In this document: in pieces, positions 7,721 through 29,860 of the stretch | Layout: each line of letters begins with the position of its first letter | Numbering within the stretch: position 1 is the stretch's first letter | Source: Schmidtea nova | Lineage: Eukaryota | Assembly (NCBI GenBank): GCA_044892505.1 | Contig: CM097883.1 | Span: 391,468,234 to 391,518,600, forward strand | Length of the DNA: 50,367 nucleotides | Direction of reading: 5' to 3' | Translations under genes and position numbers: made by a program | Notes under the pieces: generated by a model | Databases searched by the model: none | What the model was told of the DNA's origin: nothing | The model's input: the letters and a program-made list of their open reading frames with translations, nothing else

Positions 7721-8338
7721 ATTAAAGTTAAAAAAAAAAATTATCAAATTGAAGCAAAAATGAAAATTTTACTCAGTAAAGTCGTTTATTATTTTTCAAA
7801 AAATTCCTCTGTTTCCCTCCCTCGAATGCCAATTTCCTACCCCTTATACAACATTCTGATAACCACAATATTGCGCTACTTTGTCAAATTAAACTTTACA
7901 ATTACCTAAAAAATTAAACTACAAATCAACAATAAACTATAAAAAATTAGTAAACTACATATTAGAAATATTTTATTCGTTATTTTCTAATTGAGTACTA
8001 CCTCTTTAAACATTAATATCAAACTGCAAACCCGCACCATACTTTTATCAAAACTAATGTAAGATAAAATAAAGGAAATCCCCTGCAGTTATGTGTCACA
8101 CAATTTGTTGTATAACATACAACATTTTGTTGAATCAAGGTAAATTAAATTCGGCTACAAAAAGTTTGCGTAAAGATAGAGTCAGTAGTTTTTAGAACTT
8201 ATTTTTAATAAATTAAAAGTTCTGCGCAGGAGTTTGAGAAATGGTTACTAAATTTGGAAACCATTTTGTTTCAAATGTTTAGTGTTAAAATGTCAAAATT
8301 GAGTAGGTAGATGTGTGGAGCCGGGAACAAAGACATTA

Positions 8339-8500
8339 TGACTCATGCGTGGGCGGAAAAAAAAGAACAAAGACCCCCCCCTCCCCCCGGGGGGGGGTAG
8401 AAATTTTTTTTTTTGGTGAGTCATCGATGAGTCATCGATGACTCATCGATGAGTCATACTTTTTTTTTTGATGAGTCATCGATGAGTCATCGATGAGTCA
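8339..8500 (+). promoter_or_regulatory. Array of AP-1/TRE-type sites in the left TIR (11-bp unit TGASTCATCGA)
   Basis: TGA(C/G)TCA at 8339, 8417, 8428, 8439, 8450, 8472, 8483 and 8494. Function is inferred from the motif only. Confidence 0.6.
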
Positions 8501-8523
8501 TAATTTTTTTTTTCAAAAATTTT

Positions 8524-8726
8524 TTTCGCGCCAAATTTTTTTTTTCAAAAATTTTTTTTCGCGCCAAATTTTTTTTTCAAAAATTTTTTTTCGCGCCAAA
8601 TTTTTTTTTCAAAAATTTTTTTCGCGCCAAATTTGTTTTTCAAAAATTTTTTTCGCGCCAAATTTTTTTTTTCAAAAATTTTTTTCGGGCCAAATTTTTT
8701 TTTTCAAAAATTTTTTTCGCGCCAAA
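8524..8726 (+). promoter_or_regulatory. Tandem array of 7 E2F-type sites (TTTCGCGCCAAA) in ~32-bp T/A-tract units, left TIR
   Basis: Six perfect copies plus one CGGGCC variant. The 12-mer matches the overlapping double E2F site of mammalian DHFR promoters. Confidence 0.65.
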
Positions 8727-9184
8727 TTTTTTTTTCAAAAATTTTTTTAATTAGTCCAAATTTTTTTTTACTAATTTTTAAAGACGAATTTTTTTTAAGA
8801 TAAATTATTTTTAGTCAAATTTTTTTTTAAAAACAAAATTCGAGTAATCAAAAATATTTACAACAGGTGTGCAAACAAAGACATTTTTTTTATGTGTGCA
8901 TGTTTAATTAATTATTATTTGTCAAGTATGAAGCTTTTGCACTTCAAAACCATCACAGAAGAGGTTCTGCTTCCAGGGTTCTGATCGCAATGTTCTGCTT
9001 CCAGGGTTCTGATACTAAATGTTCTGCTACATTTAATTATTATTTTTTCAAACTAAAGACATTGCAACACGCGTGCAACATGAACAAAGACATTGCAATA
9101 CACATGCAAACTAAACAAAGACACATGCGTGCAACACATAAACAAAGACATTAAAAAGACAAAATTTATTTATAAATATATCGT

Positions 9185-9950: not shown

Positions 9951-10166
9951 TATTAATAATAATATTAATAATAATAATAATAATACTATAAATCAAAATA
10001 ATAAAACACTTAATAAAACATATAATAATAACTTATAATAACTTATAAAAATAACTTATCAAAAAGAAAAAAACTAATAAAAATAACTTATAAAATATTA
10101 ACAAAAAAAAAATAATAATTTCTTAGTTTTAATTGATTGCGCAATTTATTACAATCAAAATGTAAT

Positions 10167-10182
10167 GGCCCTAAAGAGGACC
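10167..10182 (-). terminator. Histone-mRNA-type 3' stem-loop 2 (GGTCCT-CTTT-AGGGCC) downstream of polB
   Basis: 6-bp stem and 4-nt loop with histone-like flanks (AAC...ATTACA). An AATAAA follows on the same strand at 10150-10145. Confidence 0.6.
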
Positions 10183-10436
10183 GTTAATTCGTTCACATTC
10201 TGATTCGGCTTTCTGAATATTTTCATCATTTGTTTCTGTGTATTTTCCTCATTTGTTTCGTATGATTTTTAATCATTTGTTTCGGATTATTTGTTTCTGA
10301 ATATTTTCATCAACATTTCTTTCTCTTTATTTTTATCAATTGTTTTGGATTATTTTCATCATTTGTTTCTGTAATCTTTTTTTTTCTTCATCTGTAAGCT
10401 AAAATTTAGTAATATTTGTTTACAATCATAAATTGT

Positions 10437-10452
10437 GGCCCTGAAGAGGGCC
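10437..10452 (-). terminator. Histone-mRNA-type 3' stem-loop 1 (GGCCCT-CTTC-AGGGCC) 143 nt after the polB stop
   Basis: Fits the GGYYYT-YTYN-ARRRCC consensus and is followed by ACAA, in sense orientation to polB. Confidence 0.65.
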
Positions 10453-10594
10453 GATTGTTCATTCTCATATCTTTTTTTTTTTTTTTGGTTTTTTGATTTT
10501 CTTTTTTTTTTTTTTGGTTTTTGATTTTCTTTTTCTGGTTTTTTAACTTTTTTTTTCCATTTCATTCTTATCATCTTTCTCCTTGCCATCATAA

Positions 10595-10658
10595 TCATGC
10601 GAAATAATCCCGAGCCGTCGGGTCATAGAAAGCGTAGGGGTCATCTTGTTGTTGAAGC

Positions 10659-10692
<34 letters not shown>

Positions 10693-13600
10693 CTTGGACA
10701 TCCCTATCACCTACAAATATAGTGGTGTCACCCCCCATATAATGACCATACGCCAAACTTTTATTTTTTTCCACCCAGTTCCTCTTATCGTCCCTACAAG
10801 ATAAAGCCCTCTTATTACTTTTAATACTGAAAAGTTGGTGGTTTTTCGAAGTAATGCGGAACTGGGGGACATTGTATATCTTATCATTAAGGTAACAGTC
10901 AAGATAAGATTGATGTGTGAGACCTGCATCTTTCAAACAGATCCCCTTGGCTTTCATGCAGGCCTCGTCTCCCATAAGACTATAGCACTTAGGTCTCAAG
11001 AAAACCCACTCATCATACAGTAGACCCTTATTCTCATCCTTAAATTTGCCAATCACAGAATCTAGGGTCCTACTATACAATGTATGACGAGTGTCGTAAT
11101 TAGAGGTATCCAAAAGCCTATCTCGAATCATGGCGGTCAAAAGGGTGTTAAGATCAAGATGTTTGATTTCCAAGAAGAAGGAATCAGTATCCCCAGCAAC
11201 GATGTTAATTTCGCAGTTGAAGTCGTTACGATATTTTTGTAACTCTTCATACTGCAGCTGGTACATACGAAGTTTGGATAAATCCAGTACGGTTTGTCCA
11301 ATGTAGCTGGGTCTATCCAAACATACTGATTCCTTCTGAAGCAATACGGAGATGAGATCATTGTCGATTTTTGTAGTTTTTTTGAAATTAGCTTTTGACG
11401 TGTAAGTCAGCAGTTTTTGTGCCGAGTTACACAGTCGTAAATTTATGCGTTTTTTTAAGTTCTCTACGGTTTTGCCGTAGAGACTATTATTTAATAATTT
11501 GTAAAAATTTTTATCGAGCTTGTTGGTAGCAGCCGCTCGTAAACTGGTGTTTATGTTTATGTAATTAAAAAATATTTTTTCTTGCTTAAATTTAATAGCC
11601 CTGTGGACTTTAGTTACAATTACACCGATTTTTATAAATAGTTGCAGAAGCCGCCAATGAAGAACATAATTCTTCTTTGGAAGATGCGTTAGCAACAGCT
11701 TCTCAACCTTGGATCCCGGTGCACACATCTTTTCAGCGGCAACTGGAAGATCATCCAGTTTGTCGTGAATCGATGCCGGAATTTCCAAATCCACTTCTAT
11801 GGTGTAACCATAATGAAGTGTATCGAGATTTCCCGATGTGCACTCACAAACGATTTGATTTAATAATTGGTCATCAGTGACCCACTCAAAATTACCACAA
11901 GGAAGGGGTTGGCTTAAGGCCCACCCGTATAAATTATTTATGTCAATATATAGTAATGCGGTATCCGGGCTCGTCTTGACATAATGTTTATTGACAAACG
12001 TTAGTCCGCCGCGAATACCGCCCTCGAAAAAGTTATACATCTCCATATCGGTGAGGAGCTCGATAGGAGAGTCAAGTGTTAATAAAGCGGAACTCCACGA
12101 CATGCCGGGAATTCCGAGAAAATTTAAAGGCTCAAGCCTGTTATGGTTAATTGATTTTAATCGAAATTGCTGAAAATAATCAGCTAACAAAAACACATCC
12201 AATTTTAAATAAACCATCATGTAATCGTACAGTGATGTACATGATGTTTCTTGCCAGATTTTATGGGCAGCAGCATACTCGACAGCAGTTATATCTTTCC
12301 ATTTCGGGGGTAAACACAAGGTTGATTTTAAAACTTCTAAAGAAGTGGCAGCGTCGTAAGGAAAAATGCCCTTGGCAGTGACTATAGTGCCTCGAAATTC
12401 AGATTGTGTTAATGGTAAGCTAGTGAGTGTTTTTACTTCGTTATTTAGAGACTCACTTACAAACTGATAAGAGTCAATAAATTTTACGGTCAGGCTATCG
12501 ATGTACGCGAAAAGGCTAAGAAACTTTTCACTTGTCAAGGGTATACAACTAATATTCCAACTGTTGTATTTTGAAAGACCATATTTTAAAATATGGTGTA
12601 AATCGTAACCCTTCAAGTTATGAAAGATTACGGGCAAAGAGTGTCGTATTTGCCGTGACTTGTTACACTCTGAGCAGGCTGCTCCAATATAAAGACCGGT
12701 GAAATGGTCGTGATCCCTAACAGGTGCCACTAAAAGTTTTTTGCATAAATAACAATTAGTGCTATTATCAAATTGTCGCTGTTGGGTCGCAGTGATAGTC
12801 ATGCGTTTTTGATAATTTTTATAGTAATAGGGTGTCACTATATACCGACTGATTGACTCAATTTCTCTTAAGAATTGATCAACACAGTCTAACCCTACAA
12901 AAGATTTGTAAATTCTCACCCCAGAAAAGTTGTTAATGAGAAGGAGACCTGCGGCAATAGGAAGATGTTTTTGGTGGTGAACAGTGTCTTTCGGTAATAT
13001 TGCCTCGAAATCCGCATATATTACAAAAGGAGGAGTTACTGTTTTTTTCCAATCAGTAAACTCCAAAAATTTATTTTTGGGTAATGTGTACAGTGTGGTA
13101 CCCAACTGATTTTTGTTACAAAGACCCTTATGACGATTAAAGGCTTCGTCGTTCCTAAACCCATTCAAGCAACGAGGGCACCATTGACTACAAATCCTAA
13201 CTGGGGTGATTGTGCTGTTTCGGCAATTCAAAAAGCGATTCAGATCGGTAATCGCAAGATAATGAAAATTATCTTTTTTCTCCAAGAGAAGCAAATTTAT
13301 GGGAATAGCCCCGACTACTTTACTACGGTAGACTATATCGATAAAGGGGTGTTTAAGGACGACATTATCATCATTGTCGTTGTCGCTTATATCAATTTGG
13401 GCCTTTTCGTCATATGTAAGGACATTTATACTATAGCCACTGTTTTGTCTTTCAAATTTTTTAATATTTACTAATTTCATGGGCATGTCGTTGGGGTCAA
13501 AAACAAGTTGGGAAATGTCATAAGAAGTAGTCCTATGCCTGTATTGGCGTTCAATACTATTGTATTTAACTACTGCTAAAAAGCTATATAAAAAGCAATA

Positions 13601-14221
13601 GGTGTCATTATTTTGTACATTAACTAAACAACTTAAATTTTTTAAGGTATTCGGCGTTTCGATATAACTGCTGCCGCTCAATCGACTAATTTCAGAAAAT
13701 TTAGTCACTAAAAAACTAATATATTCGATTTTGGAGATTGTCCAATTACTCCCCTTTTCGTTAATCTGGACAATCTTCTCATTTAAATTAGTGACACCTT
13801 CCTCAATAAAGGTATCACTCCACTCTCTGGCAGAATTTGAGATGACGAAAGATTGTAGTTGATCATCTTTCTCAAATTCTACCTTGAGACAAAATTGAAT
13901 TTTTACAGATTTTAAATTAATAATATAAGATTTTAGTTTTTCTAATAATATATCCGGCACAGAGACCGTTTTTAATAATAAATTAGATACATCCATTTTT
14001 ATAATAAAATGGGTATCGTTCAAGTCGGAAGTAACTTCAACAATACCCATTCCAATTTGATTATTATTATTATTTAAAATATTAACATAATCGTCAAATT
14101 CATCATCATTGACGATTATGTCATCGGCGGATATAATACTGATATTAGTACTTTTATTATAAATAAGATCATCCTCATCATCACTGATGAGGGATATAAT
14201 ATTATTATTATTATTATTAAT

Positions 14222-14284
<63 letters not shown>

Positions 14285-14823
14285 ATTTTCATCTTCATCA
14301 TCGCTGATGTCGATTATTATAATTTTTTTAGGAACTGAATCCATTAATGTTTGGTTTTTTCTTTTATTTATATTTGATGTATTGATTTTATTTGTATTTT
14401 GTATATTATTTGTTTTAATAGTATTTTGTAATTTATTTGTATCAATAGTATTTTGTAATTTATTTGTATCAATAGTATTTTGTAAATTATTTGTATTAAT
14501 AGTATTTGTTGTATTATTATTATTATTTGTATTTATATTATTTGTTGTTTTATTTCTAATAGGAGTATTTGATAAATTATTAGTTTTATTCGAAATATAA
14601 TTTTTATATAACGAATTAAAAAGTGATTTTTTAGATGGTTGGTATTGGGAAAGGTGTGACCTATGAAAGATATAAAATTCCCTATAAGAAGTAGTTTCAA
14701 TAATTTTACATTTAGGGCATAGGAGGTGGGTGACACCATTATATTTATATGAATAATACTTTTCCATAATGACATGACAGTCACTATGGAAAGTATTATT
14801 GCAAAAATTTTGGTATATTGAGC
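10595..14823 (-). CDS. polB: Protein-primed family B DNA polymerase (pPolB), main exon; ATG-only ORF 10595-14767, 1390 aa
   Basis: Exo I YADFE, Exo II FHNLKGYD, Exo III YLKLD, Pol A YIDINNLYG, Pol B KLLNNSLYGK, Pol C GDTDS, and KAKG. Also an EndoVII-like RDHDHFTG..CSECN insert and an OTU-like DTYCF...HY region. The frame stays open upstream to a CAG acceptor at 14826-14824. Confidence 0.97.
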
Positions 14824-15870
14824 CTGAATATTGAAAAAAAAAATTAAAATCAAAGGCTACAATTATAAAATTAAAATATTATGAGTAAAAATTAAAATAT
14901 TATTAGTAAAAATAAATATTTCAAATAAGAGATTATTACCTATTAAGTTAATGATTAATATATTTTTATAACAAAAAAAAAATTAATATTTTGATAAATA
15001 TTTAAAATAATAGTTAATTGTTAAAAAATAAACATTTACCTATTATTTTAAATATAATCAAAAGTTTTATATATATATATTATTTTTAAAACCTAATCAT
15101 AAAAAATAATATTATTTTTATATCATTATAAAATCATCATTAAAATATTAAAAATTGTTCATCAATATAATATATTCTTCATAAAAAATTTCAGCATAAT
15201 AATATCATCTTCGTCATAAAAAAAAATTGAGCGTAATAATATCATCTTCATCATAATAAAAAAAAATTGAACATCATCATATCATCTTCTTCATAATAAA
15301 AAAATTGAACATCATCATATAATCGTTTTTTTTTTTTTGTCATAAAAAATTTCAACTACATATTTTTTATTCATAAAAATAATTTTATATATATATTAAA
15401 AATAATAAAAAAATATTAGCATAAATATATAAAAAATAATATTATTAATTTCATATAAATTCAACATTATTTCATCATAAAAAATTTGAGCATTATTATA
15501 TCATCTTCATCAAAAGAAAAAATTGAACATCTTCATATAATATTTTTTTTTATCATAAAAATTTTAACATTATATTTTTTTCTTCATAAAAAAATTTATC
15601 TTTTTCTTCATAATAAACATTTCTTTTCATTTCAAATTCATAATATCATAATTTTTTTCTTCATAATAAAAATATATCTTTTTTATTTTCATTTCAAATT
15701 CATAATATCATATTTTTTTTTCTTCATAATAAACATTTATTTTCTTCATAAAAATAATTTTATCATAAAAAATTAATTAATTTATTTAAAAATATTCCCA
15801 TAGGAATTAATTAAAAATAATAAAAATATTATTATTATTATCATATACAAAAATAAAAATAAAAAATTAC

Positions 15871-16257
15871 ATTTGCCAGAGTTTTTTCCAATAAAACTCT
15901 GCATATTGGACCATCCGTTATAAGCATCATTAATCGGGACATCGTTACTCGGCATATTGGTACTCGAGACATCGAAATTCAGGACATCATTATCATCACC
16001 ATCATCATTAATCGAGGCATCTATATCAACAACATTTCCTAAAAAATTGAATAATAAAGAAAATAATAATTTAATAATATTAATTTTACTATTTAATCTG
16101 TTTTGATTTTGGATTCTTAACGATGTTCCTACCATATTGTTGGATAAATTAACACCTAGAAATAATATATTATAAATATAATAAAATAAAAATTAATAAT
16201 TTTACTTTTTAGACCTCCGGCGATCCTTGTTGGTAAATTAATATTTAAATTTTGCAT
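15871..16257 (-). CDS. Three upstream coding exons (16257-16206, 16155-16090, 16038-15871), probably the 5' exons of polB
   Basis: GT-AG introns of 50 nt (16205-16156) and 51 nt (16089-16039), all phase 1. A donor at 15870 is phase-compatible with the polB acceptor (T+GC = Cys), giving a 4515-nt frame (1504 aa + stop). Confidence 0.6.
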
Positions 16258-16325
16258 AATTGCTTTAGAAATTGATTAGAAATTTGTTATAAAATTTGAA
16301 AGTAAAAAGTGACGAAATAATTCAA

Positions 16326-16476
16326 GTATATACTATATAAAGGTGAATTTTATTAACCGACCAATCAGAATCGAGATAGGATAGGTAAATACATGCACAC
16401 ACATACTGCACACATAATATACCTTTGTTTATGTGTGTTTGACGTCACGATATTGCTTTGTATCGTGACAAAGACA
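16326..16476 (-). promoter_or_regulatory. Putative polB promoter: TATA-like, CCAAT, CRE and ACAAAGACA elements
   Basis: TATATAG at ~16339-16333, CCAAT at 16361-16365, TGACGTCA at 16440-16447 and ACAAAGACA at 16468-16476, all upstream of the ATG at 16257. Confidence 0.5.
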
Positions 16477-16615
16477 TGACATGTGATTATCACGCATTGA
16501 TCACGCACTGGTCATGCCTTTGTGATGAAAATAATAATATTTATAATTAATAATAATAAAAATAATAATTAATAAAAATAATAATAAAAATAATAATAAA
16601 AATAATAAAATACAT

Positions 16616-17017
16616 TTATTGCTTTAAATAATCAACAACAGCAGACAAGCACCCTTTATAGGCACACATGCAATGATCTTTATAGGGACATGAAATGTTT
16701 TCAGGAACATATTCAACATCTTTAAAATTATATTTAATTAATCTTAATTTGGGGAAATACTTCTTCAAAACATACATCTTTTCATGATCTGTTACATAGA
16801 AAATAGCTCCTTTATCTGTAATATCATCCATTATACATTTTGGGCAAAAATAATCTTGTCCTTCAAACGATTCTATACGATCAGGCCATAAAGATAAATC
16901 ACTGTATATATAATACTGAGGTGTGAATATATTATTGACATTCATAATACATAATTCCTTAATTGTTGTTCCACCCATTTCATTATATCCATAAAAATCA
17001 ATAAAATAACAAGACAT
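16616..17017 (-). CDS. Small conserved Polinton accessory protein (133 aa), possibly DnaQ/DEDD nuclease-like fold
   Basis: N-terminal IDFYGY...IKELCI, central FYV..HEK..LK and C-terminal CP..H..CA resemble a recurrent Maverick protein family as I recall it. The fold assignment is tentative. Confidence 0.55.
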   Translation of the reverse strand: MSCYFIDFYGYNEMGGTTIKELCIMNVNNIFTPQYYIYSDLSLWPDRIESFEGQDYFCPKCIMDDITDKGAIFYVTDHEKMYVLKKYFPKLRLIKYNFKDVEYVPENISCPYKDHCMCAYKGCLSAVVDYLKQ

Positions 17018-17049
17018 TTTTTCAAATAAAGTTTATTAAAATAAATTGT

Positions 17050-17427
17050 TTATAACATTGATTTCAACCATGCAAGGCAATGTTCACCACAAGTGATTGT
17101 TAAAGGATGCTGATACCGAATTCTATTATACACAATAGGTTTACCGATAGTTTGTAGTTTTCGAACAAGTAAATTCGGATAATAATATCCAAATGGATCA
17201 AATACATGTATTCGATCTGGTTTCACATAAACTGCAATCCAATGTTCACCACCCAATGTAGATGTCTGAGTATTTACAATGATGGCTTGATTCATTTTCA
17301 AATAAGGTATTTTATCGAGAGGAAATACTCCAATAAATTGATTTCCCAATAGTTTTTTACCTTGTTGTAATACCTGAAAAGAACTAATTAAAAATAAATA
17401 ACTAATCAATTAAAAATCTTACTCCAT
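17050..17427 (-). CDS. Adenain-like (family C5) maturation cysteine protease, 2 exons (17427-17423, 17383-17050), 112 aa
   Basis: GEHW, FDPFG and Q..TITCGEHC supply His, Asp, Gln and Cys. A 39-nt GTAAGA..TAATTAG intron yields the N-terminus MDSFQVL..FIGVFP. A TATAAA lies at 17465-17460. Confidence 0.9.
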
Positions 17428-17467
17428 AATAATAATAATAAAAATAATAACTTTGATCATTTATACT

Positions 17468-17538
17468 GTTTGAGCTCTGCTCAAACCAGTAATGTTTAAG
17501 CTTTGCTCAAACTAGTAATGTTTGAGCTCTGCTCAAAC
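17468..17538. repeat. Three 26-bp-spaced copies of a 19-bp palindrome GTTTGAGC-TCT-GCTCAAAC between MCP and protease
   Basis: Copies at 17468-17486, 17494-17512 (variant) and 17520-17538. The last overlaps the MCP stop codon. Confidence 0.9.
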
Positions 17539-18753
17539 CAGTATTGTTCGATTGGCAGTAATTTGAACTTCATTTTCAAAAACTCCATAAATAACTACAT
17601 GAACCGGTTCATCAATAGGTTTTGCAAACTTTATATCCAGTCGTAAATTTCCGTTTTGAGGGATTTGGCTTTGATTCAAATCAAAATCGGGAGCCAGAAC
17701 AAATGTAAAGAATGGATAACTAGATTTAAATTCATCTAGACCAATACCACAATTCAAGTTTTTATCCAAATAACCTAGATTTCGGACAAGACTTTGCATA
17801 TATGATGCACTAAAATTATCATTTTCAAAATCCTGGGTATATGTTTCACGATAATCGGTATTTTTCGACAATGTTAATGAAGTCACATTAAAGTGTTTGA
17901 ATGTAGATGTTGACTCAGTATAAGACCCATTATATTGATTTTCGGATTGAAAAGCCACAAGAATGAAATTAGGCATTCGTCTATCTCCAAATATTTGCTC
18001 CTTGTAAAATGACGATGCCCCTTTACCGATAGCAAACGATACGATTTCTTTGGATTTTAATGGATAAATTGCATGTTTTTTATTTAAACCAATTTGATGA
18101 CCGGCCAATACTGAAGAATCACATCGAACTCTTCTTACCATTAATTTTGCATCAACTATTTGGATAACTGGTTTTCCAGCTACCGATTTCAATGATAATG
18201 CAGAATCAGATCGCTTCAATCTAATATGTACATTAACTCCGGGAAGTAAGTATTTAGGTTGATCCATAAAATCCAGTTGTAATGACGAACACATGTTGAA
18301 AAGTTTAGATCCTTTAATCCATTTTTTTCGATCGTCAGCTGAACCATATCCCATTGGAGTAAGACATGTTTCTTTAGCATCATTCGTATAATTTAAAATA
18401 GTTTCGATTATTGCCTTGTGTGCATATGTATTGTTTCCACCCTCGATTTTTATATTATTAAATCCGAGAATTACATCTTTGAAAAGTGTATGAAACAGGT
18501 AATTATTAGGAACTACATCACTCGCATCGGCTAGAGCTTTTTTATCTTTATCTACAACTTTGATTGTAACGGACAATAATGTATCGTTCAAATCCAAATA
18601 TTCGGTTTGAGAACCATTAATGTAAAATTCAACATCATTTCTACTATCTGTAATTGAATTCATTGGAAACACATCTTCAAACGCCCCATATTCAATAACT
18701 GCTTGAGGTGATGGTCGATCAAAAAGACATAATTCAGATTTACCGCAAATCAT
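17533..18753 (-). CDS. Major capsid protein (double jelly-roll, Polinton PY), 406 aa
   Basis: CGKSELCLF..P..IE, VEFYI.G..EYLDL..T.L, LDFMDQPKYLLPGV and GNLRLDIKF are typical Polinton MCP motifs. Confidence 0.93.
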   Translation of the reverse strand: MICGKSELCLFDRPSPQAVIEYGAFEDVFPMNSITDSRNDVEFYINGSQTEYLDLNDTLLSVTIKVVDKDKKALADASDVVPNNYLFHTLFKDVILGFNNIKIEGGNNTYAHKAIIETILNYTNDAKETCLTPMGYGSADDRKKWIKGSKLFNMCSSLQLDFMDQPKYLLPGVNVHIRLKRSDSALSLKSVAGKPVIQIVDAKLMVRRVRCDSSVLAGHQIGLNKKHAIYPLKSKEIVSFAIGKGASSFYKEQIFGDRRMPNFILVAFQSENQYNGSYTESTSTFKHFNVTSLTLSKNTDYRETYTQDFENDNFSASYMQSLVRNLGYLDKNLNCGIGLDEFKSSYPFFTFVLAPDFDLNQSQIPQNGNLRLDIKFAKPIDEPVHVVIYGVFENEVQITANRTILV

Positions 18754-19133
18754 TCTTCAAATATAGTTCCATGACCTTTCATTCGTTTGTTTATACGCTT
18801 TCGTTTACGTCTTGGTCCTACCGGTACAGATTCCGGTTCCTTATTTTTTGTAAACATACTTGTAATTGTAGGAAGCATTTGTGTTACAGCAGGTATAGCT
18901 TTATTAACTGCGGCCAAAGCATTGGTTTTCAATGACGGTAATATTTTATTATCTTTCATGATAACGTCCTTGGCAGTATTCATTCCGAAATTACCTAGTC
19001 GTCTAAGAATTGGAAGTGCAAATCTCCCAATAGTTTTCAACCAACCTGATCCATACTGTTTACCGACAAAATACGGTAATTCGCCACCAGTTTGGCTATC
19101 ACTGTACATTGAAACTATATCGGGATTACTCAT
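18750..19133 (-). CDS. Putative virion core/membrane-lytic precursor protein, 127 aa
   Basis: QTGG and QYGSG glycine motifs, then an amphipathic WLKTIGRFALPILRRLG helix and a basic RRKRKR tail. Lies between mCP and MCP with overlapping start/stop codons. Confidence 0.7.
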   Translation of the reverse strand: MSNPDIVSMYSDSQTGGELPYFVGKQYGSGWLKTIGRFALPILRRLGNFGMNTAKDVIMKDNKILPSLKTNALAAVNKAIPAVTQMLPTITSMFTKNKEPESVPVGPRRKRKRINKRMKGHGTIFEE

Positions 19134-20169
19134 CGTTTTTTCGAAAATGTAGAGTTAAGTGAGTTTTTGAATCTTTTGGAAATTTTATAAATCTTCCACT
19201 GTCATCCCGGATATTTATTTCTATATTGTTTATACAGGATGTTGAAACAGGTAAATACATTGGATTTTCAACTTGTATTTGAACAATTTCATCTGGCTCG
19301 TATTTTTCAATCCATATAGATTTTAGTAAAGGAACCAAGGAATCACCAACAATAATGGGTTCGATAATGTTTGTATATACGAATAATTGCTGATGAAGTT
19401 TAGATATTTTCGGTTGACGAACACCAGAAATAATATTTTTATCGGTAAATGTATCCTTATCTAATCCCAATGTATTGACCAAGTATTTATCAAATCTGAC
19501 TTTATTGATTTTTTCTTTGAGTTTGAATTTAAACAATTTATTTAATTCGACAACTGTAAAAATATCCGAACAATTATCGCTAATATATTTCTGTAATTCA
19601 TCTAGATGCGTTATATACAACTCCTCCTTGAAGGTGAATACATGTCCTTCTTGACGATCATACGATATTTTAAAAGTAATTATTTCTTCATCGTTACTGG
19701 CCAAGTTTTGCATAACTTTGAATTCACATTCTTCTTCATTACATATCATTGTCAGTTTATTACTTCCCATTCGTTTTGCTACATCAAGATCGTTAAATGT
19801 AATTGTATACGGAACAACATTACACGTGAGAATTATTCTTCCACTTCGTTGCCACATTTCGATATCCGGATCAATTGTGTGAGTTGGAACATTCAGAAGG
19901 CCACTATTATTATATATCGAGAAAAATGCATTTGCAACAGTTGTTTTCGTAATATAGTAATATATTTTACAATAACTATAATATGGAAAAGGATGGTAAA
20001 CAAATGTAAAATCCATTAGAGCAACTTCCCAATTTCCGTTTAAATAAATAGGATTAGGTAAATTCACCATGAATTTACTTGCGGTATTATCTGGATGGAT
20101 ATTCGGACAACTATTACTCGGTAAAATAGTGTAAAAATTCACTTTACTAGATTTTTTGACGAGATCCAT
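19126..20169 (-). CDS. Minor capsid protein (penton, Polinton PX), 347 aa
   Basis: FYTILPSNS..PDNT..F.V.LP.PI.L.G.WEVAL and LFVYTNIIEP..VGD..VPLL..Y.PV..IEINIRD. Confidence 0.92.
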   Translation of the reverse strand: MDLVKKSSKVNFYTILPSNSCPNIHPDNTASKFMVNLPNPIYLNGNWEVALMDFTFVYHPFPYYSYCKIYYYITKTTVANAFFSIYNNSGLLNVPTHTIDPDIEMWQRSGRIILTCNVVPYTITFNDLDVAKRMGSNKLTMICNEEECEFKVMQNLASNDEEIITFKISYDRQEGHVFTFKEELYITHLDELQKYISDNCSDIFTVVELNKLFKFKLKEKINKVRFDKYLVNTLGLDKDTFTDKNIISGVRQPKISKLHQQLFVYTNIIEPIIVGDSLVPLLKSIWIEKYEPDEIVQIQVENPMYLPVSTSCINNIEINIRDDSGRFIKFPKDSKTHLTLHFRKNDE

Positions 20170-21183
20170 GATGGTTCTTTATATCCATGCCATTTGACAT
20201 AGTATTGTTTATCCTTACCCACCATTTTAGTCTTCAAAATCTTTTGAATTCTAAATATCGTAGGTTTAGGAATAACTTGTAATTCTTGTTCGTAGAATTT
20301 GCCGCTGATTATATTGTTATCAGAGTCACGAATAGTATACATGACAGGATTCTGCACTGTGTTGACTTTCGATATTTGATATACCTCATCACTCCAATTA
20401 TTATCAAAATTTTTAACGAATGGCGATGTACTAATCTTGCTAATTCGAACATGATCATCAACTTTATATTTTGGTTTCTTTACTTTCACTTCACTCACAA
20501 TATTTTCAGTATCAACTACTTCTGCCGGTTTCCTACCATTTATACCCCGATGAGCACTATGATTATAACTATGAATCAATTGAGGTAAGACATTAATCCA
20601 GGTTTTATTGCCTTTAAAAACAAAGTATTTTTTCAATCGATCACGCAAAGTTCGATTAAGTCTCTCGACATGAGCGGCTTTGAATTGTGAGAATACCGAA
20701 TAATGATTTATTCCCTTGATAACTTCCTTGACTTTACTGTTGTAAAACTCCTTTCCTAAAAAATATTAAATTTATAAATTTAAATTAAAATTTACCCAAA
20801 TCGGTTTGTAAATTAGTTGGCCGATCCTTTTTCATCATTGTCTTGATAGCAATTGCCATATCATTAGCAGATTTTGATTTTACTCCAATTGCTCGAGCAA
20901 ATCTACTGTAAACATCAATACACGTTAAAATATACTTGTACCCCTTGTTAATTTTGGAATACGGAATCATTTCCATCAAGTCCATTTGCCACAAATCATT
21001 GATTCTATATGTTTTATATGCTCGAGTTGGAAACCGTTTCAACATCGGCTTGTTTAGACTGTATGCAAGTTGCCCCGATAACCAACTTTGTGTCTGTTGT
21101 TTCGACTTCTGTGCTTTTTTCCTTAGCTTTTCGACTCCACCGAAACCGGCGTCGTCTTTTGGGTTCGTCCAGATCTTCTCCAT
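20139..21183 (-). CDS. int: Retroviral-type (rve) DDE integrase with C-terminal chromodomain, 2 exons (21183-20796, 20755-20139), 334 aa
   Basis: WQMDL, QTDLG|KEF and VERLNRT form D-D-E once the 40-nt GT-AG intron 20795-20756 is removed. Total 1005 nt in frame. YYVKWHGY..SW chromodomain. Confidence 0.95.
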
Positions 21184-21238
21184 TACAACAAGAAGATTTA
21201 AAGTTTAAATTTAAATTAGGTAATGATTGACCCATTGT

Positions 21239-21748
21239 TTATGACTTTCTTTTTCCCAATAAACCAGCACCTCCCAATAAAGATAATGCTAATGGTAACA
21301 ATGCTGCGATAAAACCACCTTGTTGTTTATATATTACTTTGCGCATAAGTTTTTTATTTTTTGAGTTTACTAGCGACAACAATGGTTTTTTATGTTTGTT
21401 CAAAACACGGCGATTAGATGGAGTTAGATTTATTTTACCTCGCACGACTTTAATTAAAATAGAGAGTAAATCATCGATGACGTAACTAGGAAACGATTGA
21501 AGAATACCCATTCTTCTAACGGAAGGGGCTTTAAGTAATGCATTAAAAAACGGTAAACTACGATGATGTGTTTGTTTAGCATTAGATTTCAAATTATTTT
21601 TGGGAATATTATCCATAAGTATTTTCTTGGATTTCTTTCTTGATTTCTTTATAGATTTCTTTGTAAATAGTTTCTTTGTTTTCTTTCCCGCTTTCTTTGT
21701 TCTAGCCTTTATCAATGGCTCAAACTTTACTCGAGATTTCATTAACAT
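21239..21748 (-). CDS. Putative basic DNA-binding core protein precursor, 169 aa
   Basis: Lys/Arg-rich N-terminus. C-terminal QQGG-FIAALLPLALSLLGG hydrophobic segment with protease-site-like GG motifs. Confidence 0.7.
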   Translation of the reverse strand: MLMKSRVKFEPLIKARTKKAGKKTKKLFTKKSIKKSRKKSKKILMDNIPKNNLKSNAKQTHHRSLPFFNALLKAPSVRRMGILQSFPSYVIDDLLSILIKVVRGKINLTPSNRRVLNKHKKPLLSLVNSKNKKLMRKVIYKQQGGFIAALLPLALSLLGGAGLLGKRKS

Positions 21749-21768
21749 GATTACGATTGCAAACAGAA

Positions 21769-22392
21769 TTAACTTTGTTTATAAACCATGGCTCCTTCAG
21801 GGTTAAAAATATCGGTTCTAACCCGTAAATCATCACTACATTGTTGAGTAAAATCAAGGAAAATATATCCATGAGGAGATTTTGTAGCATCTTGAAAGGC
21901 TTCAATCAAAAAGTTACGATTAGAAGGATAAGCTTGTCTTGCCAGAAAATCAATAACTGTTGCATCTCTAGGATTTTTAAAAACAACAAGATATTGAACA
22001 TTTAAATTACGAGTTCGATGACTACCGCCCTGATGAAATAAATTCTGAGTTATAAAAATAACAGTAACACCTTTATGTCTACTGATTTTCGTAAATAAGT
22101 TATTGAAATCCTTTTCTTTATTTGCTTCTTGATACAAGTCGTCAATGATAATCACATCACCATGTTTTAATCTAGATGACCAGTTTTTATCGAAACCTTT
22201 AATGATTGTCATTTTTATTTTACAAAACTGATCTTGTGTCATTCCACTTTCGTCGTCAGCACCCCTATGCCAATAAATATTATTAAATTTTGACTTGAAT
22301 AATTTCGATTGCAATAATTTACAAACAAATAAAGTTTTTCCACTCCCGCTCGGACCAACAATTTGAAACACTGCATCATTTCTTAATTCCAT
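21769..22392 (-). CDS. FtsK/HerA-superfamily (A32-like) genome-packaging ATPase, 207 aa
   Basis: Walker A GPSGSGKT, Walker B IIIDD, SRH..VIFITQNLF and N.QYLVVFKNPRD. Confidence 0.95.
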   Translation of the reverse strand: MELRNDAVFQIVGPSGSGKTLFVCKLLQSKLFKSKFNNIYWHRGADDESGMTQDQFCKIKMTIIKGFDKNWSSRLKHGDVIIIDDLYQEANKEKDFNNLFTKISRHKGVTVIFITQNLFHQGGSHRTRNLNVQYLVVFKNPRDATVIDFLARQAYPSNRNFLIEAFQDATKSPHGYIFLDFTQQCSDDLRVRTDIFNPEGAMVYKQS

Positions 22393-22485
22393 ATTTAAAA
22401 ATTATATTTTCTTAATATTATTGTTTATATTTGTTTTAAATACCTGTTCTCAAAGTAATTATTTCATTTAAAAATATTTTCAGTA

Positions 22486-22953
22486 ATGATTAGAAACATT
22501 AATTACAAAGGTAAGACAGATGTATCACACATGAAATTTCCAAATGGAAAACCCCAGCAAATTGTAGATCGAAGTGGAAAATACCCAATAATATACTTTA
22601 AATCAGGAAGATATAGAATAATGGGATGCAGGGAATTTATTAGTGACGAACAAGTTGAGTTTTACGATTTAAAGATACAATCGATAACTGTAACTGCGGA
22701 TTTAGGATTTATTTGTAATTTGAATGAATTATCGAAATTAATACCATGTGTTTACGAGCCAGAATTATTTCCAGCTTTGAGATATATCAAATATAATCCC
22801 ATGTGTGTAAATATATTTGCAAGCGGGAAATTAGTCATATTAGGATTAAAAAACAAAGACTATAGTACTATAGTTGATGATATTATTTACGATATAAAAT
22901 CAATTATAGAAGATAAAGCCTTTATTGATTTCATACTAACATGTGACTCATGA
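22486..22953 (+). CDS. TATA-box-binding protein (TBP)-like protein, 155 aa
   Basis: Two TBP repeats: RNIN..IIYFKSGRYRIMGC and KIQSIT..DLGF..L..L..YEPELFPALRY..NIFASGKLVILGLK, compared with canonical YEPELFPGLIY..LIFVSGKVVLTGAK. Confidence 0.88.
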   Translation: MIRNINYKGKTDVSHMKFPNGKPQQIVDRSGKYPIIYFKSGRYRIMGCREFISDEQVEFYDLKIQSITVTADLGFICNLNELSKLIPCVYEPELFPALRYIKYNPMCVNIFASGKLVILGLKNKDYSTIVDDIIYDIKSIIEDKAFIDFILTCDS

Positions 22954-23128
22954 CTGCAATATCGATGCATTAGAAATGCACGATTCTGATTGGCTCTGTG
23001 TGTATCGATAGAATAAAGACATGTTGTGCATGCTTCATTCTGATTGGTTCATTATGTATGTTTCAAATCATGTGTGTTTCTTTGATATATATACTATGAA
23101 CAATCTCACATAGTTTATATTCACAATA

Positions 23129-23792
23129 ATGTCTCTTACGCAAACACTAATTAAAAGCCGTAAGGATTTTTAATTATTTATTTATTAAAATTAATATTAT
23201 TTCTTTTTTAGAAAAGTTGATGAACGTTATTTACAGAAAGCTTGAGGAACTGTTCCCAAATCTTATGCCAGCTCTGGTCTATACGGCTCCTGAGATGTTC
23301 CCGTACAAGATAATGGTCTTGACGGGAATCGACATCAATCAGATTGTGCTCGATCACATGACGAGCCAGAATACTGATCTTCCAAGGGTACCCGAGCACA
23401 TTATCTGTGCGTACCAATGCGGGAGCTGCGTGGAACGCATTCGTCAATTTAATATTTGGGTTTTGCGAAACTCATTGAGATTATACGAAGTCCAGCAAAT
23501 GGACAAAATCGATGAGGAAAAGGAAGATGATGAACAAGTCAAGGAAACATGGCCGAACTCGACTCCGGAACCGAATGATGATGAAGATGATCAATCAAAA
23601 AATGATTGCTCAATGGAACATGCACCATCTCTAGATGGTCCGTATCCATCGAAATCACCTGATTGTTCAGAATCTCCACATTCACCCGATTGTGCCGAAT
23701 GCCATCGACAGGCTGATGGTGTTGATAATGATGATGAAGAAGAAGAAGAAGAACAAGAAGAAGAAGAAGTAAAAGAAAACGATGAACAATAA
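23129..23792 (+). CDS. Hypothetical protein with acidic C-terminal tail, 2 exons (23129-23159, 23212-23792), 203 aa
   Basis: The ORF-track start is a TTG just after a TTTTTAG acceptor. A 52-nt GTAAGG..TTAG intron restores an ATG start in phase (612 nt). GC content is raised, and CCAAT and TATA-like elements lie upstream. Confidence 0.7.
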
Positions 23793-24290
23793 TCTGATGT
23801 GTATGTGTGTGTTTAATGTAATTAGTTTTTTTCTTTTAGTTATGTTATTTTAGTTTAATAAAAGTTTATTTATTTATTTTAGTTTTTTTATTCATTTTAG
23901 TTTTTGTTTTCATTTAAATAATAGTAATAGTTTTATTTTTTTTTTTTTTTATTAAAACATTTTAAGTAGTAGTTTTTTAATTAACTGTATATAAAAGTTA
24001 AAAAAAAAAAATTTTTTATTAAATACTTTTCAGAAAGAAAGTAGTAGTAGTAGTATTATAAAATAAATAAGAACATTAGGAACAGAACCTATTCTGTGTT
24101 GGTTTTGATATGCAAAAAGCTTCATACTAAACATATACTAATTAATTAAACATGCACGCATACAACAAAAATATTGCAATACATGTGCATACTGTGTGCA
24201 AAACAAATGCATGAATATGATTGGACAAAGACATCCAGTAATCAGTATAAATACAAAGACATTTTATAAAATATTGTCACAATTTACAAC

Positions 24291-24707
24291 ATGCAATCAC
24301 GAAAAGAAAATCTAGATATAAGCGAAGAAAAAATATATCAGACTGAGGTAAAACCAGTTCAGATGTACTATGACAGCCGACTTTATTTTTTGGTTAATGA
24401 AATACCGTATCGATTATCATTTCCGGTAAAGTTAACAAAATCTTTATATGACAGTCTTGCTATAATTATTTCCAAAGCAGATATTATCGCATTAAATCGA
24501 TTATTTTCAAAGATCAATGTTAATTTGACATGTAAAGAAACAATGTACATCAATAACCGAAAAACTCGGTTTCATGATGCTTTTCAGACTATTGATTTCA
24601 TGGATCAAGAACACTGGTTCGTTACAGTTATTATTCAAGGGTACAAGATTGATAAAAAAGATGTTGTTACTCCGATTTGGAGAGTTGACAATGCAAGATA
24701 CGCATAA
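24291..24707 (+). CDS. Hypothetical Polinton protein, 138 aa
   Basis: Clean ATG ORF with TATAAA at 24246-24251, an ATTGG box upstream and AATAAA ~10 nt after the stop. Confidence 0.7.
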   Translation: MQSRKENLDISEEKIYQTEVKPVQMYYDSRLYFLVNEIPYRLSFPVKLTKSLYDSLAIIISKADIIALNRLFSKINVNLTCKETMYINNRKTRFHDAFQTIDFMDQEHWFVTVIIQGYKIDKKDVVTPIWRVDNARYA

Positions 24708-24771
24708 TTGTTTTTTAATAAATATTTTAGTATGAACAAATTTAGTTTTTATATTAGTTTTTGTTTTTAAA

Positions 24772-25353
24772 ATGAAATTAATTATAGTTATTTTATTATT
24801 ATGTGTTGACAATACTGAAGGAGAACAAGCTTTGGAGGATTGTCAATCATCACATCCGTTTCGAAAACAAGATAGTACTTGCGCGAGTTATAACGATATA
24901 TGTCTTTACTCAAACATTGAATGCAATCAAATTAAATTACAATGTAATCAATGTCCTTCCAAAAATAATGTGATTAATAATGATATTGAAAAAATGATTA
25001 ACAAAATAATTATGAAAATAGTTGAACGATTAAAATGTATAAATCAAACTATTGTTAAAAAAGAATATGAAGTCAGATACCAAAATCAAACAGTTGAAAA
25101 CGAAAAAACATCAATTGTTTTACATTATATAAGTTTATTTATATTAATAATAATACTGATGTTATCGGCATCCATACGGCTGGAGAAGATTTCAAATATT
25201 CCAAAGAATAATATTCCGACAAATACTAGTATTCCGATGAATAATATTACAATGAATAATATTCCGATGAATAATATTCCGAGTAACAATTCAGATGTAA
25301 ATAATTTTGAAACTAAATTTTGTACACGTACACAACGATATATTTATAAATAA
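24772..25353 (+). CDS. Type-I membrane protein with signal peptide and 6-Cys ectodomain (TNFR-CRD-like), 193 aa
   Basis: Hydrophobic N-terminus, C-x12-C-x6-C-x6-C-x6-C-x2-C, two NQT sequons, TM segment ISLFILIIILMLSASI and an NNIPMNN-repeat tail. Confidence 0.7.
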   Translation: MKLIIVILLLCVDNTEGEQALEDCQSSHPFRKQDSTCASYNDICLYSNIECNQIKLQCNQCPSKNNVINNDIEKMINKIIMKIVERLKCINQTIVKKEYEVRYQNQTVENEKTSIVLHYISLFILIIILMLSASIRLEKISNIPKNNIPTNTSIPMNNITMNNIPMNNIPSNNSDVNNFETKFCTRTQRYIYK

Positions 25354-26354
25354 ATTTTGTCTTTTTTAATGTCTTTGTTTATGTTGAACGCATGTGTCTT
25401 TGTTTAGTTTGCATGTGTATTGCAATGTCTTTGTTCATGTTGCACGCGTGTTGCAATGTCTTTGTTCATGTTGCACGCGTGTTGCAAAGTCCTTGCACGT
25501 GTGTTGCAATGTCTTTGTTAACTTGCACGCATGTTGCAAAGTCATTAGTTTGAAAAAATAATAATTAAATGTAGCAGAACATTTAGTATCAGAACCCTGG
25601 AAGCAGAACATTGCGATCAGAACCCTGGAAGCAGAACCTCTTCTGTGATGGTTTTGAAGTGCAAAAGCTTCATACTTGACAAATAATAATTAATTAAACA
25701 TGCACACATAAAAAAAATGTCTTTGTTTGCACACCTGTTGTAAATATTTTTGATTACTCGAATTTTGTCTTTAAAAAAATAATTTGACTAAAAATAATTT
25801 ATCTTAAAAAAAATTCGTCTTTAAAAATTAGTAAAAAAAAATTTGACCTAAAAAAAAAAATTTTTGAAAAAAAAATTTGTAAAAAAAATTTTTGAAAAAA
25901 AAAATTTGGCGCGAAAAAAATTTTTGAAAAAAAAATTTGGCGCGAAAAAAAATTTTTGAAAAAAAAATTTGGCGCGAAAAAAAATTTTTGAAAAAAAAAA
26001 TTTGGCGCGAAAAAAAATTTTTGAAAAAAAAATTTGGCGCGAAAAAAATTTTTGAAAAAAAAAATTTGGCGCGAAAAAAAATTTTTGAAAAAAAAATTTG
26101 GCGCGAAAAAAATTTTTGAAAAAAAAAATTATGACTCATCGATGACTCATCGATGAGTCATCAAAAAAAAAGTATGACTCATCGATGACTCTTCGATGAC
26201 TCATCGATGACTCATCGATGACTCATCGATGACTCATCAAAAAAAAAAAATTTTCTACCCCCCCCCGGGGGGGAGGGGGGGTCTTTGTTCTTTTTTTTTC
26301 CGCCCACGCATGAGTCATAATGTCTTTGTTCCCGGCTCCACACATCTACCTACT
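25335..26354 (-). repeat. Right terminal inverted repeat of the Polinton (at least 1020 bp)
   Basis: Mirror of 8302-9184. Contains 7 TTTGGCGCGAAA copies (25905-26108), 9 perfect TGASTCA sites (26132-26317) and extra TTGCA/CTTTGTT subrepeats (25410-25545). Confidence 0.95.
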
Positions 26355-26857: not shown

Positions 26858-27713
26858 CAGTGGTTCAAAAGTGTGGTTCGCGAATCGACTTAAAGTGGGA
26901 GCAAAAATTTTTAATATTTAGTTGTTCGTATTAATTGTGTGGATATTAATTTGCTTTTAATGATTTTTGCTGCAATATAAAAGTAGAAGTCGAAGATGTT
27001 ATTGCCAAAATTAGAAAACTAGCTCATTAGTCTCATGCAGCGCCGTGCTGTAACTTTTGGGGGCCCTGTGCAGAAACTAAAAAATTTTTTTTTTAATTTG
27101 AATTAATTTTTTATTGATTTTATTTAAAAAAATAATACAAAGCAATTATAAAGTAATTTTTCTAGCTTTTTTGCTGGCAAATTCATTAATTATATCATTG
27201 TAATCAATTGCTCTGGCTGTTGCATTTCCAATCGGCAGTATTGCCAATCCATGAAGTCTTTCCTGTGACATTGTAGACTGTAGATAATTTTCAATTAATT
27301 TTAGTTTTGAAAACGATCGTTCACAATGAGCAAAGGTAAAATGGGTACTGTTAAAATTATTCGATATATGATACATACATTTGGATCTAATTCTTCCAAA
27401 CTTCTTTCTAAAATGTATTCCAAATTCTCCATAATAGTATAAATATCTTCTAAAATATATTTTTGCTAATGGAGAAGTTTTTCCAATGTATTTAATATTT
27501 GGGGGCCCTTCAAAAATAGGGGCCCCAGTGCTATTGCACTTGTTGCACTTGCGATAGTACGGCGCTGGTCTCATGCATTCACTTAATTATTAAATGGGCT
27601 TTTAATAAATAAATTAAAGATTTTACTTTTATCCTTGTTTTTTTACAGGTGGCTAGCGAAAAACTTACGTTTTTTATAGTTGGACTCGACTGATAAAAGT
27701 TTGGGAACCACTG
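26858..27713. mobile_element. Decayed Charlie/Buster-type hAT MITE (interrupted by a second hAT)
   Basis: CAGTGGTTC..AAAGTGTGG left end and AAAGTTTGGGAACCACTG right end. The TSD is no longer recognisable. Confidence 0.7.
27038..27567 (-). mobile_element. Non-autonomous hAT deletion derivative (530 bp) retaining the transposase dimerisation-domain tail
   Basis: TIRs CAGCGCCGT(G/A)CT and an 8-bp TSD GTCTCATG (27030-27037, 27568-27575). Encodes CERSFSKLKLIENYLQSTMSQERL..LAIL. Confidence 0.92.
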
Positions 27714-28593
27714 ACTTACTAATTACAAATTTTTACAACACACTAATTAATTATTTAGTTTTGAAAATGGCCTAAAAATTGAAACGGAAAAATATCATAT
27801 TGAAACATAATATATCTAGTGTGTTATACAAACTCATAATACAAAAAATACACGGTTAATAATAGTATTTTTAACATATAATAATAATAATAATGTTGGG
27901 TTAGTGTAAAATATTGAGTTAAATAAAAATATTGTAAATTTATCTAAAGTTAAAGGTTTAGCTGAATTTGATCAGCTAACTATTTTTAAATATAAATTTA
28001 AGTCTGTTGGAAAGATAAGGCTTTAAATGAATCGGAACTTCTTTTTAAATCCGAATAAAGCTGAGTGTCTAGGTTCTTATTGATGGGCGGCCTAAATACA
28101 TGGTTAAATCTCCCATGAGACATCCATGTGCAAATAGCAGATGATATATATTATAAGGTCATCGCGTGTAAGAATATTCTTTTGGCCTTTGGAATCTATT
28201 TTCTTTCAAACTCATCCTTGACAAGGCTGCTCACAATTTATAAACCTTTCCCAAATATGCCAATCAAGGTGGGCTTGTTGTAGCACCTGGTAGATTCAGA
28301 TGCTATAGCTTTATTTAAGTTGGTAAATATCCCTCCTTCTGTAGCATTTGATCCAGATTCTGAAATCTTTGACACGCGTTGAAATCTTATCATGAATTTC
28401 TTCATTGTTTCCTTTTAAACTTTCTGCAATTGTGGAATCATTGTGGAATAGTACACCAATAACGAATTTTTACAGTAACAAAAACAGATGTGAAGACTCT
28501 CATTTTATAAAGAGTTGGGTTCTGTCGCTTTTTAATAAGCAATCTTCTGTCTGTGACTTTAAAATTTTTCATGATCCCGATAGTCTCCAATAA

Positions 28594-28832
28594 CGGTTCA
28601 TTATATCTGCTGTTGGTCAATCTTTTTGCGTCAAAAACAGTATCATTTGTGTTCATTGTAATTTGCTTTTTGCATCATCTCCAATCAATCGCTCTGTATC
28701 GGTAAATGCTACATAACTGGGAGTTGTACGATTTCCTTGTTCGTTGGCAATAATTTTTACTTCGCCATGTTGGTACACTCCAATGCATGAATAAATAGTA
28801 TCCAAATTTATGCCAATAGAGTTATCAGACAT
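28594..28832 (-). pseudogene. hsp70: HSP70 N-terminal fragment (pseudogene)
   Basis: [48 protein letters not shown] and, after a frameshift, N..TVFDAKRL. The GIDLG motif has decayed and no further HSP70 sequence follows. Confidence 0.9.
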
Positions 28833-29860
28833 TGAATTAAATTTCAAATTCGAAGAAAATCAATTATTATTAAAATTGCTTTTATAATTTGAAAACAAAT
28901 TAAAAATTTTATTATTATTTCAATACAACTCTTCTTTAAATAACAAAAAGCCAAAATAACTCCAAAATATTTAAACTGGTTCGACAAAACAAAGCATTCA
29001 TTGTCGAACCATTTTTAACAATTATTAAAAATAAATTTCTTATAATTTAATTTTTTTACAAATTCACTTGTCTCTAAATCCCTGATATTATTCAAGCCCA
29101 ATCAAATCTTTAACTTAAAATTTATTTTAATTTTACTATGGCAGCAGCTAGACACGACCTGAAAGAGTGGAGAGGTATGCGAGTTAAATGCATAACTCTT
29201 TCTCAGAGAAAGAATTATATATATTTAGAACTAACTTTATTAGCTACATATTTTAAACAACATTTAATGAAATAACATCTTACCTATTATCTAAGGATAC
29301 GAAATAAGTTAAAGCTAAAAAGTCTTTCATCAAAAACCATATAAAGATAATGAATATTGTCAAAAGCTAATTCACTATAAAGACTTTTTTGTAAAATTTA
29401 GAAATCTAATTTTTGGCCAACCATTCTAAGCAGCTTGACGGTATTCGTCGCAGTTTTGGTCTTATCATTATTGAAAAAATACAACAAGTCTCATCTTGTA
29501 CAGAAATTATATTCCTCTATTAAAGTGCAAATAATTATTGGCAATATCCTAATGGTGCTTTCATCAACAATTGGCGGAATAGTTGAAAAGTTTCGATTTC
29601 AGATATATTGGAATTGGGATCCAGCTGCCGGAATTCTCTCTCCGGAATCTTTTTATCAAACAATAGGTAAATATATATATTTATATAATATACTTTGAAA
29701 TTTGTGATAATTTTCATGTTCAATATTGAAAATTTATTTTACAGTCTATGTTGATACGTAAGGGATTTTGAATAATAAATGTGGAAGTAGTTAATAACTA
29801 TGCCACTCAAAACTACCTTTCCCTTTATTAATTACAAAAACTTACAAATATATTATTAGA

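Follow-up and report, generated by a model that had tools for sequence, protein, structure and literature searches.

Probable spliceosomal-type introns, inherited with the element, in core genes of a Schmidtea nova Polinton

Does a capsid-encoding Polinton rely on the splicing machinery of its host to make its own integrase, protease and polymerase? The question is raised by a Polinton/Maverick of Schmidtea nova, found in a stretch of 50,367 nucleotides (nt) that we analysed as a whole and call the window (assembly GCA_044892505.1, contig CM097883.1, forward-strand positions 391,468,234 to 391,518,600). A first-pass annotation had listed five short introns in this element, and all five are present with the positions and sizes it gave (17422-17384, 20795-20756, 23160-23211, 16205-16156 and 16089-16039). 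All are GT..AG and have 5-13% G+C. The annotation had overlooked a long intron of polB (15870-14824). We consider it very probable that the GT-AG inserts in the integrase, protease, polymerase and accessory genes are inherited with the element and constitutively removed by the major spliceosome of the host. The interrupted genes, including an accessory open reading frame (ORF), are laid out as follows.

10595..14823, minus strand: polB last exon, with a Cys/His-rich zinc-finger-like start, a low-complexity linker and a protein-primed B-family polymerase (PF03175)
14824..15870, minus strand: predicted long polB intron, 1,047 nt, phase 1, GT..AG
15871..16038, minus strand: polB leader exon 3
16039..16089, minus strand: predicted polB leader intron 2, 51 nt, phase 1
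16090..16155, minus strand: polB leader exon 2
16156..16205, minus strand: predicted polB leader intron 1, 50 nt, phase 1
16206..16257, minus strand: polB leader exon 1, including the start codon
17050..17383, minus strand: adenovirus-type protease exon 2 (PF00770)
17384..17422, minus strand: predicted protease intron, 39 nt, phase 2, five bases past the first base of the start codon
17423..17427, minus strand: coding part of protease exon 1, the start codon and two bases
20139..20755, minus strand: integrase exon 2, with the catalytic Glu and a chromodomain
20756..20795, minus strand: predicted integrase intron, 40 nt, phase 1, in a Gly codon two residues past the second catalytic Asp
20796..21183, minus strand: integrase exon 1, with both catalytic Asp (PF00665)
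23129..23159, plus strand: short exon 1 of the accessory ORF
23160..23211, plus strand: predicted intron of the accessory ORF, 52 nt, phase 1
23212..23792, plus strand: exon 2 of the accessory ORF, no Pfam family

Lone AT-rich GT..AG stretches are cheap in this DNA. The element alone has about 50 such candidates, and the case for introns therefore rests on comparison. Further GT..AG candidates at the starts of the ATPase, TBP-like and 24-kb genes were rejected, because these genes have conserved ATG starts without an intron.

We aligned each integrase exon separately to 120 listed full-length homologs (of 182 found). In all 120, exactly one residue, a glycine, separates the last full codon of exon 1 from the first codon of exon 2, so that removal of the insert restores the frame as first proposed. 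The insert lies in the active site, another part of that proposal, only in the sense that it falls between Asp128 and Glu160 of the DDE triad (D68, D128, E160; rve PF00665 on exon 1, chromodomain on exon 2). Read without splicing, the gene meets a stop after 132 codons, and ORF callers would indeed score it as broken. The motif flanking the two exons, with a gap of 27-57 nt, is found at 10,807 loci in the genome against 1 for the reversed control; GT..AG ends are present in 10,465 of these loci and in 0 of the control. The same genome has 172 loci where the motif is uninterrupted. In the first 30 gapped loci by position, the insert is 40-45 nt long and covers all three frame classes (one 48-nt case was seen elsewhere). 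Its identity to the insert of the window is 64-100%, its ends persist, it begins with GTAA in 27 loci, and we saw no conserved interior motif. A GC..AG insert was seen in one integrase copy (G000:C1:4385915-4385982, among the first 100 listed). In four subfamily comparisons, the ratio of nonsynonymous to synonymous substitution rates (dN/dS) came to 0.05-0.15 for exon 1 as well as for exon 2; a fifth comparison reached saturation on exon 2. The tested codons of exon 2 precede its first Met in the window copy and are hence readable only from the start of exon 1. These ratios indicate that both exons are under purifying selection across subfamilies. We set aside the absence of any intron difference among the first 30 copies, because these had been chosen for similarity at that very intron. 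Nine intron-free integrase matches were checked as candidate processed copies, i.e. copies that had lost the intron, and all proved to belong to distant families or to be decayed fragments, most of them with 55-75% identity to the exons of the window.

The protease gives a similar picture. Unspliced, it reads ATG-GAG-TAA, as the first-pass annotation had stated. The gapped pattern occurs at 5,226 loci, of which 5,081 have GT..AG; the protease patterns were narrower than those of the integrase, hence fewer subfamilies are counted. The intron is present in 10 out of 10 subfamily copies, and also in families with an intron-free integrase (L192, L222 and the palindromic family described below). 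The GT is gone from one decayed copy, and L181 no longer has this part of the gene. We found 38 metagenome loci, five of which cover the protease. Four of the five have the intron at the same site (L067, L071, and the near-identical L074 and L075), and L085 has none. Both integrase halves are present in 32 metagenome loci, and in none of these is the gap between them of intron size (26 have 3 nt, the rest 4-15 nt). Several of 15 database proteases are intron-free and start M-N/D-S/T/H, which matches the predicted spliced form. About half of the 15 begin with an Ile/Tyr/Phe-rich stretch that resembles translated intron, which suggests that misannotation is already occurring, with translated-intron N-termini on several database proteases. 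A search of the genome for an intron-free protease start returned 58 matches against 286 for the control, and the protease was present at none of the 10 loci checked.

Hence, GT..AG ends are retained while interior and length vary, and removal of the insert yields a homologous uninterrupted frame for the integrase and the protease start. On this pattern the inserts are likely spliceosomal-type (U2-type) introns, although their splicing itself is something we infer. It is very improbable that they are instead inactivating insertions or decay, with the split copies mobilised in trans by intron-free elements. The genome does contain an intron-free integrase family, at about 172 loci, which could act as such a source, and no transcript was seen. 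Decay would not account for purifying selection on both integrase exons, for a position that is fixed while length varies and GT/AG are kept, or for a protease insert shared with intron-free-integrase families and with metagenome contigs.

The chance is close to nil that ribosomes get past the break by frameshifting or hopping, or that the introns are introner transposons or self-splicing elements. Frameshifting is excluded by insert lengths that fall in all three frame classes. Introners are known from dinoflagellate polintoviruses (PMC11957031, PMC12166617) and group I introns from some Polinton-like viruses (PMC12220804). The five short introns of the window are no more alike than shuffles (best pair, one of ten pairs: 23 of 500) and lack terminal inverted repeats. 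Being unlike each other and without inverted ends, they are not introners. At 39-52 nt, they are far from the 309-376-bp group I introns described in PMC12220804, and at 5-13% G+C they would be too short for a catalytic RNA fold of some hundreds of bases.

The sizes had also been said to match host introns of 41-58 nt in the window. This range was not exactly reproduced. A PTR2-like host gene has three candidate introns of 53, 57 and 78 nt, and the introns of the element are similar to these or slightly shorter, parts of the window being masked. The exons of this PTR2/POT-like transporter are at 29405-29760 and 37660-38171 on the plus strand, with the candidate introns of 78 and 57 nt; its assignment comes from an Atlas lead (0.92), with PTR2 on 34% of members.

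The polymerase gene is more complex. About 1 kb separates the end of its leader exons, at 15871, from the polB frame. In the eight copies we viewed, a donor follows the leader, then comes a long AT-rich stretch and an acceptor before the Cys/His-rich exon. Joined, the four exons of the window copy give 1,504 codons without an internal stop. When the short leader introns (43-56 nt) were picked by composition alone, the frame from the ATG to the long donor was open in 23 of the 28 testable copies (30 given), and the long intron ranged from 333 to 1,156 nt across the 28. The metagenome contig L071 shows, by eye, three short GT..AG inserts at the 5' end of polB. In L205/L206, the leader has two near-identical exon-plus-intron units in tandem and four short introns, an apparent case of intron gain by duplication. 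In L193/L194 and L201/L202, which represent one subfamily, the long polB intron also contains an antisense frame that has short intron candidates of its own; this frame has no match among the proteins of the window.

The accessory ORF at 23129 has its phase-1 intron after the short exon 1 in L181 and in all seven subfamily copies carrying this gene. When 20 close copies are compared, exon 1 shows 11% substitutions without a single gap, whereas gaps do occur in the intron. A one-base deletion within this intron is common in four sequencing runs of unrecorded kind. An in-frame Met lies shortly downstream, hence this intron is less essential than those of the integrase and the protease.

When were the introns acquired? 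We built an integrase tree of 53 sequences, leaving out L192, L222, L184, L180 and L181 (no long continuous frame) and L208 and L210 (no open frames). The 12 intron-bearing rows fall on one side of a branch with support 97. Mapping intron presence on a phylogeny, as the first-pass annotation had proposed, thus places them in one clade. The neighbours of this clade are two database proteins and a family of this genome whose integrase has no intron. The simplest reading is that the integrase intron was gained once. The intron-free sisters read GGTAAA at the intron site, and exon 2 begins with GTAA, as the intron does, in 15 of 30 loci. This suggests that the intron arose by insertion or duplication at a ready-made GGTAA donor; the subfamily to which the window copy belongs is different. 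Branches outside the integrase-intron clade (L067, L071, L074) also have the protease intron, which is therefore likely older. It is likely older than the expansion in this host. The first-pass annotation had placed intron gain during residence in the host. This fits the integrase intron, apparently gained within this lineage, but not the protease intron or the intron-rich 5' end of polB, which are also present in distant metagenome contigs.

Several observations weigh against our interpretation. No exact intron-skipping joint was seen in the reads (four runs from one study, with even coverage of the element), among the 15 of 126 joints viewed, and none of the seven joints over the integrase intron in these runs skips it exactly. 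The kind of these runs is unrecorded, and the absence of such joints is uninformative on expression. The leader test of polB failed in 5 of the 28 copies, and 20 of the copies are near-identical, so that the 23 successes are not independent tests. A search for homologs of the polB zinc-finger exon found none, and the long junction hence lacks outside confirmation. The 97% retention of GT..AG in the integrase partly reflects young copies. The tree was a quick one, midpoint rooted and without bootstrap, and the 24 of the 120 database proteins it took are intron-free by way of calling. In 13 of the 30 loci, including the window copy, exon 2 starts with GAAA; an origin by duplication is thus only suggested.

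Taken with these points, our preferred interpretation would run as follows. Transcripts of the element would arise in the nucleus, and the integrase, the full-length protease and the full N-terminus of polB would need splicing. The introns would have been acquired at different times. Those of the protease and of the intron-rich polB 5' end would be old and common to relatives beyond this genome. The integrase intron would be a single gain at the base of a clade that now has more than 10,000 copies; it likely arose when a short sequence was inserted or duplicated at a GGTAA that was already there. The leader introns would increase in number, at least one copy having gained them through tandem duplication of an exon plus its intron. 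All would likely persist because their exact removal is cheap and no reverse-transcription step erases them, not because they act as a switch.

The first-pass annotation had instead suggested that splicing gates integration and maturation. If the introns are real and regulated, retention in most cells would leave the integrase truncated and the protease absent, while permissive cells would splice the transcripts and so allow integration and virion maturation. The third intron of the Drosophila P element is a precedent for such regulated splicing: the transposition enzyme needs host splicing, and retention yields a truncated protein. The present element differs from the P element in being self-synthesizing and capsid-encoding, and its splicing requirement is predicted and any regulated retention hypothetical. 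In the window copy, retention abolishes both proteins, and the introns sit in enzyme genes while the capsid and ATPase genes have none. In addition, PMC8532177 describes Polinton transcripts of one planarian under control linked to PIWI-interacting RNA (piRNA), changing with differentiation, which may not apply to this host. We nevertheless regard gating as unlikely, and our data do not support the suggestion. The stop in the protease is inevitable, as it is the donor consensus GTAA read in phase 2. Stops in the read-through integrase are scattered from codon 3 to codon 20, and 2 of 30 loci read through 30 codons without any. The donors are mostly consensus, the interior has no conserved motif, and the intron-free integrase family has multiplied in this genome too.

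The element itself spans 8302-26354 (18,053 bp), with ends AGTAG..CTACT, the same six bases on both flanks, i.e. a 6-bp target duplication, and terminal inverted repeats with 89% identity over about 900 nt. It is a Polinton/Maverick by its protein-primed polymerase B (pPolB), DDE integrase, ATPase, protease, capsid fold, terminal inverted repeats, AG..CT ends and 6-bp duplication. The polymerase matches PF03175 (E 6.6e-27), the packaging ATPase PF04665 (E 6e-7) and the protease PF00770 (E 5e-6). The model of the 406-aa capsid ORF has modest confidence (mean predicted local distance difference test score, pLDDT, 63.6) and matches capsid proteins of iridovirus, Sputnik and mavirus (E 8e-13 to 4e-11). 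A PDB sequence search with the capsid protein gave no match, and viral contigs scanned with the capsid protein and with the protease alignment yielded no relative. Its remaining features are these.

8302..9184, plus strand: left terminal inverted repeat, followed by a masked stretch
16616..17032, minus strand: conserved ORF, no assigned function
17533..18756, minus strand: major capsid protein, no intron, double jelly roll by predicted fold
18750..19154, minus strand: small conserved ORF
19126..20178, minus strand: conserved ORF, no Pfam family at cut-off; minor capsid is a guess from position
21239..21778, minus strand: basic conserved ORF
21769..22401, minus strand: A32-type packaging ATPase (PF04665), no intron
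22459..22953, plus strand: TBP-like protein (PF00352)
25335..26354, minus strand: right terminal inverted repeat, inner boundary approximate

The sequence TATAAACA lies upstream of six of the seven genes in the minus-strand structural module (window 17047, 18788, 19227, 21324, 21776, 22422) and recurs in subfamilies; its window-wide count of 12 is not above chance, being reached by 8 of 100 shuffles. It is a candidate promoter for the TBP-like protein of the element. A broader picture would be a spliceosome-dependent polintovirus lineage extending beyond this genome, with introns as cell-specific controls and intron-free capsid and packaging genes under a TATAAACA promoter read with its own TBP-like factor. 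We think this rather improbable.

We also observed other forms of the element. A second family (G000:C1:17243500-17257800, i.e. L188/L189; also L190/L191) is a giant palindrome with 6.85-kb arms that are 99.8% identical. Each arm has ATPase, intron-free integrase and capsid genes, and one protease gene lies between the arms; polB had no match inside this element. Many inverted integrase pairs about 7 kb apart occur genome-wide. The gene at 19126-20178 is duplicated in tandem in L193/L194, L201/L202, L207/L208 and the metagenome loci L061-L063. Elsewhere in the window are a decayed 5' fragment of Hsp70 (28240-28860, minus strand) and two remnants of hAT-type transposases (4345-5676 and 27146-27586, both minus strand). 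The genome is AT-rich and the assembly 1.25 Gb; if every one of the 10,807 split-integrase loci were 18 kb, they would account for up to about 15% of it.

How does this compare with known elements? Intronless core genes are a described property of Mavericks that is not part of their definition, and the window element lacks it. Its pPolB, rve integrase, ATPase, protease, capsid, inverted repeats, 6-bp duplication and 18-kb length are shared with animal Polintons/Mavericks (PMC8097293; bioRxiv 10.1101/2022.07.12.499685). According to these papers, intact vertebrate Mavericks show no introns, in agreement with Kapitonov and Jurka 2006 (PMC8097293), and nematode Mavericks have intronless core genes and introns in cargo only (bioRxiv 10.1101/2022.07.12.499685). 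Here, in contrast, inserts interrupt the integrase, the protease and polB in nearly all copies that match. Expansions of Mavericks have also been noted in one flatworm genus. Dinoflagellate eupolintoviruses likewise have spliceosomal-type introns inside polintoviral elements (PMC12166617, PMC11957031). Those introns are introners, i.e. transposon copies, and mostly secondary, arising after integration, whereas here they are dissimilar, lack inverted repeats and occupy fixed inherited sites across subfamilies. In the literature searched, with Repbase Reports, subscription journals, preprint supplements and the 2006-2007 founding papers outside its scope, we came across no description of spliceosomal introns inherited in the core genes of Mavericks. 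The present case contributes its scale, the placement of one intron gain on a tree, the occurrence of another intron in distant contigs as well, and a correction to the polB gene.

These results have consequences for annotation and for biology. Pipelines that require continuous core ORFs would class more than 10,000 integrase loci as dead, and would truncate the protease and the N-terminus of polB. A dated intron gain whose ancestral, intron-free state survives in one genome alongside thousands of descendant copies is rare material on the origin and drift of introns. Inherited introns in genes for replication, integration and maturation would mean that the element is transcribed in the nucleus and depends on the spliceosome of its host, which would limit its host range.

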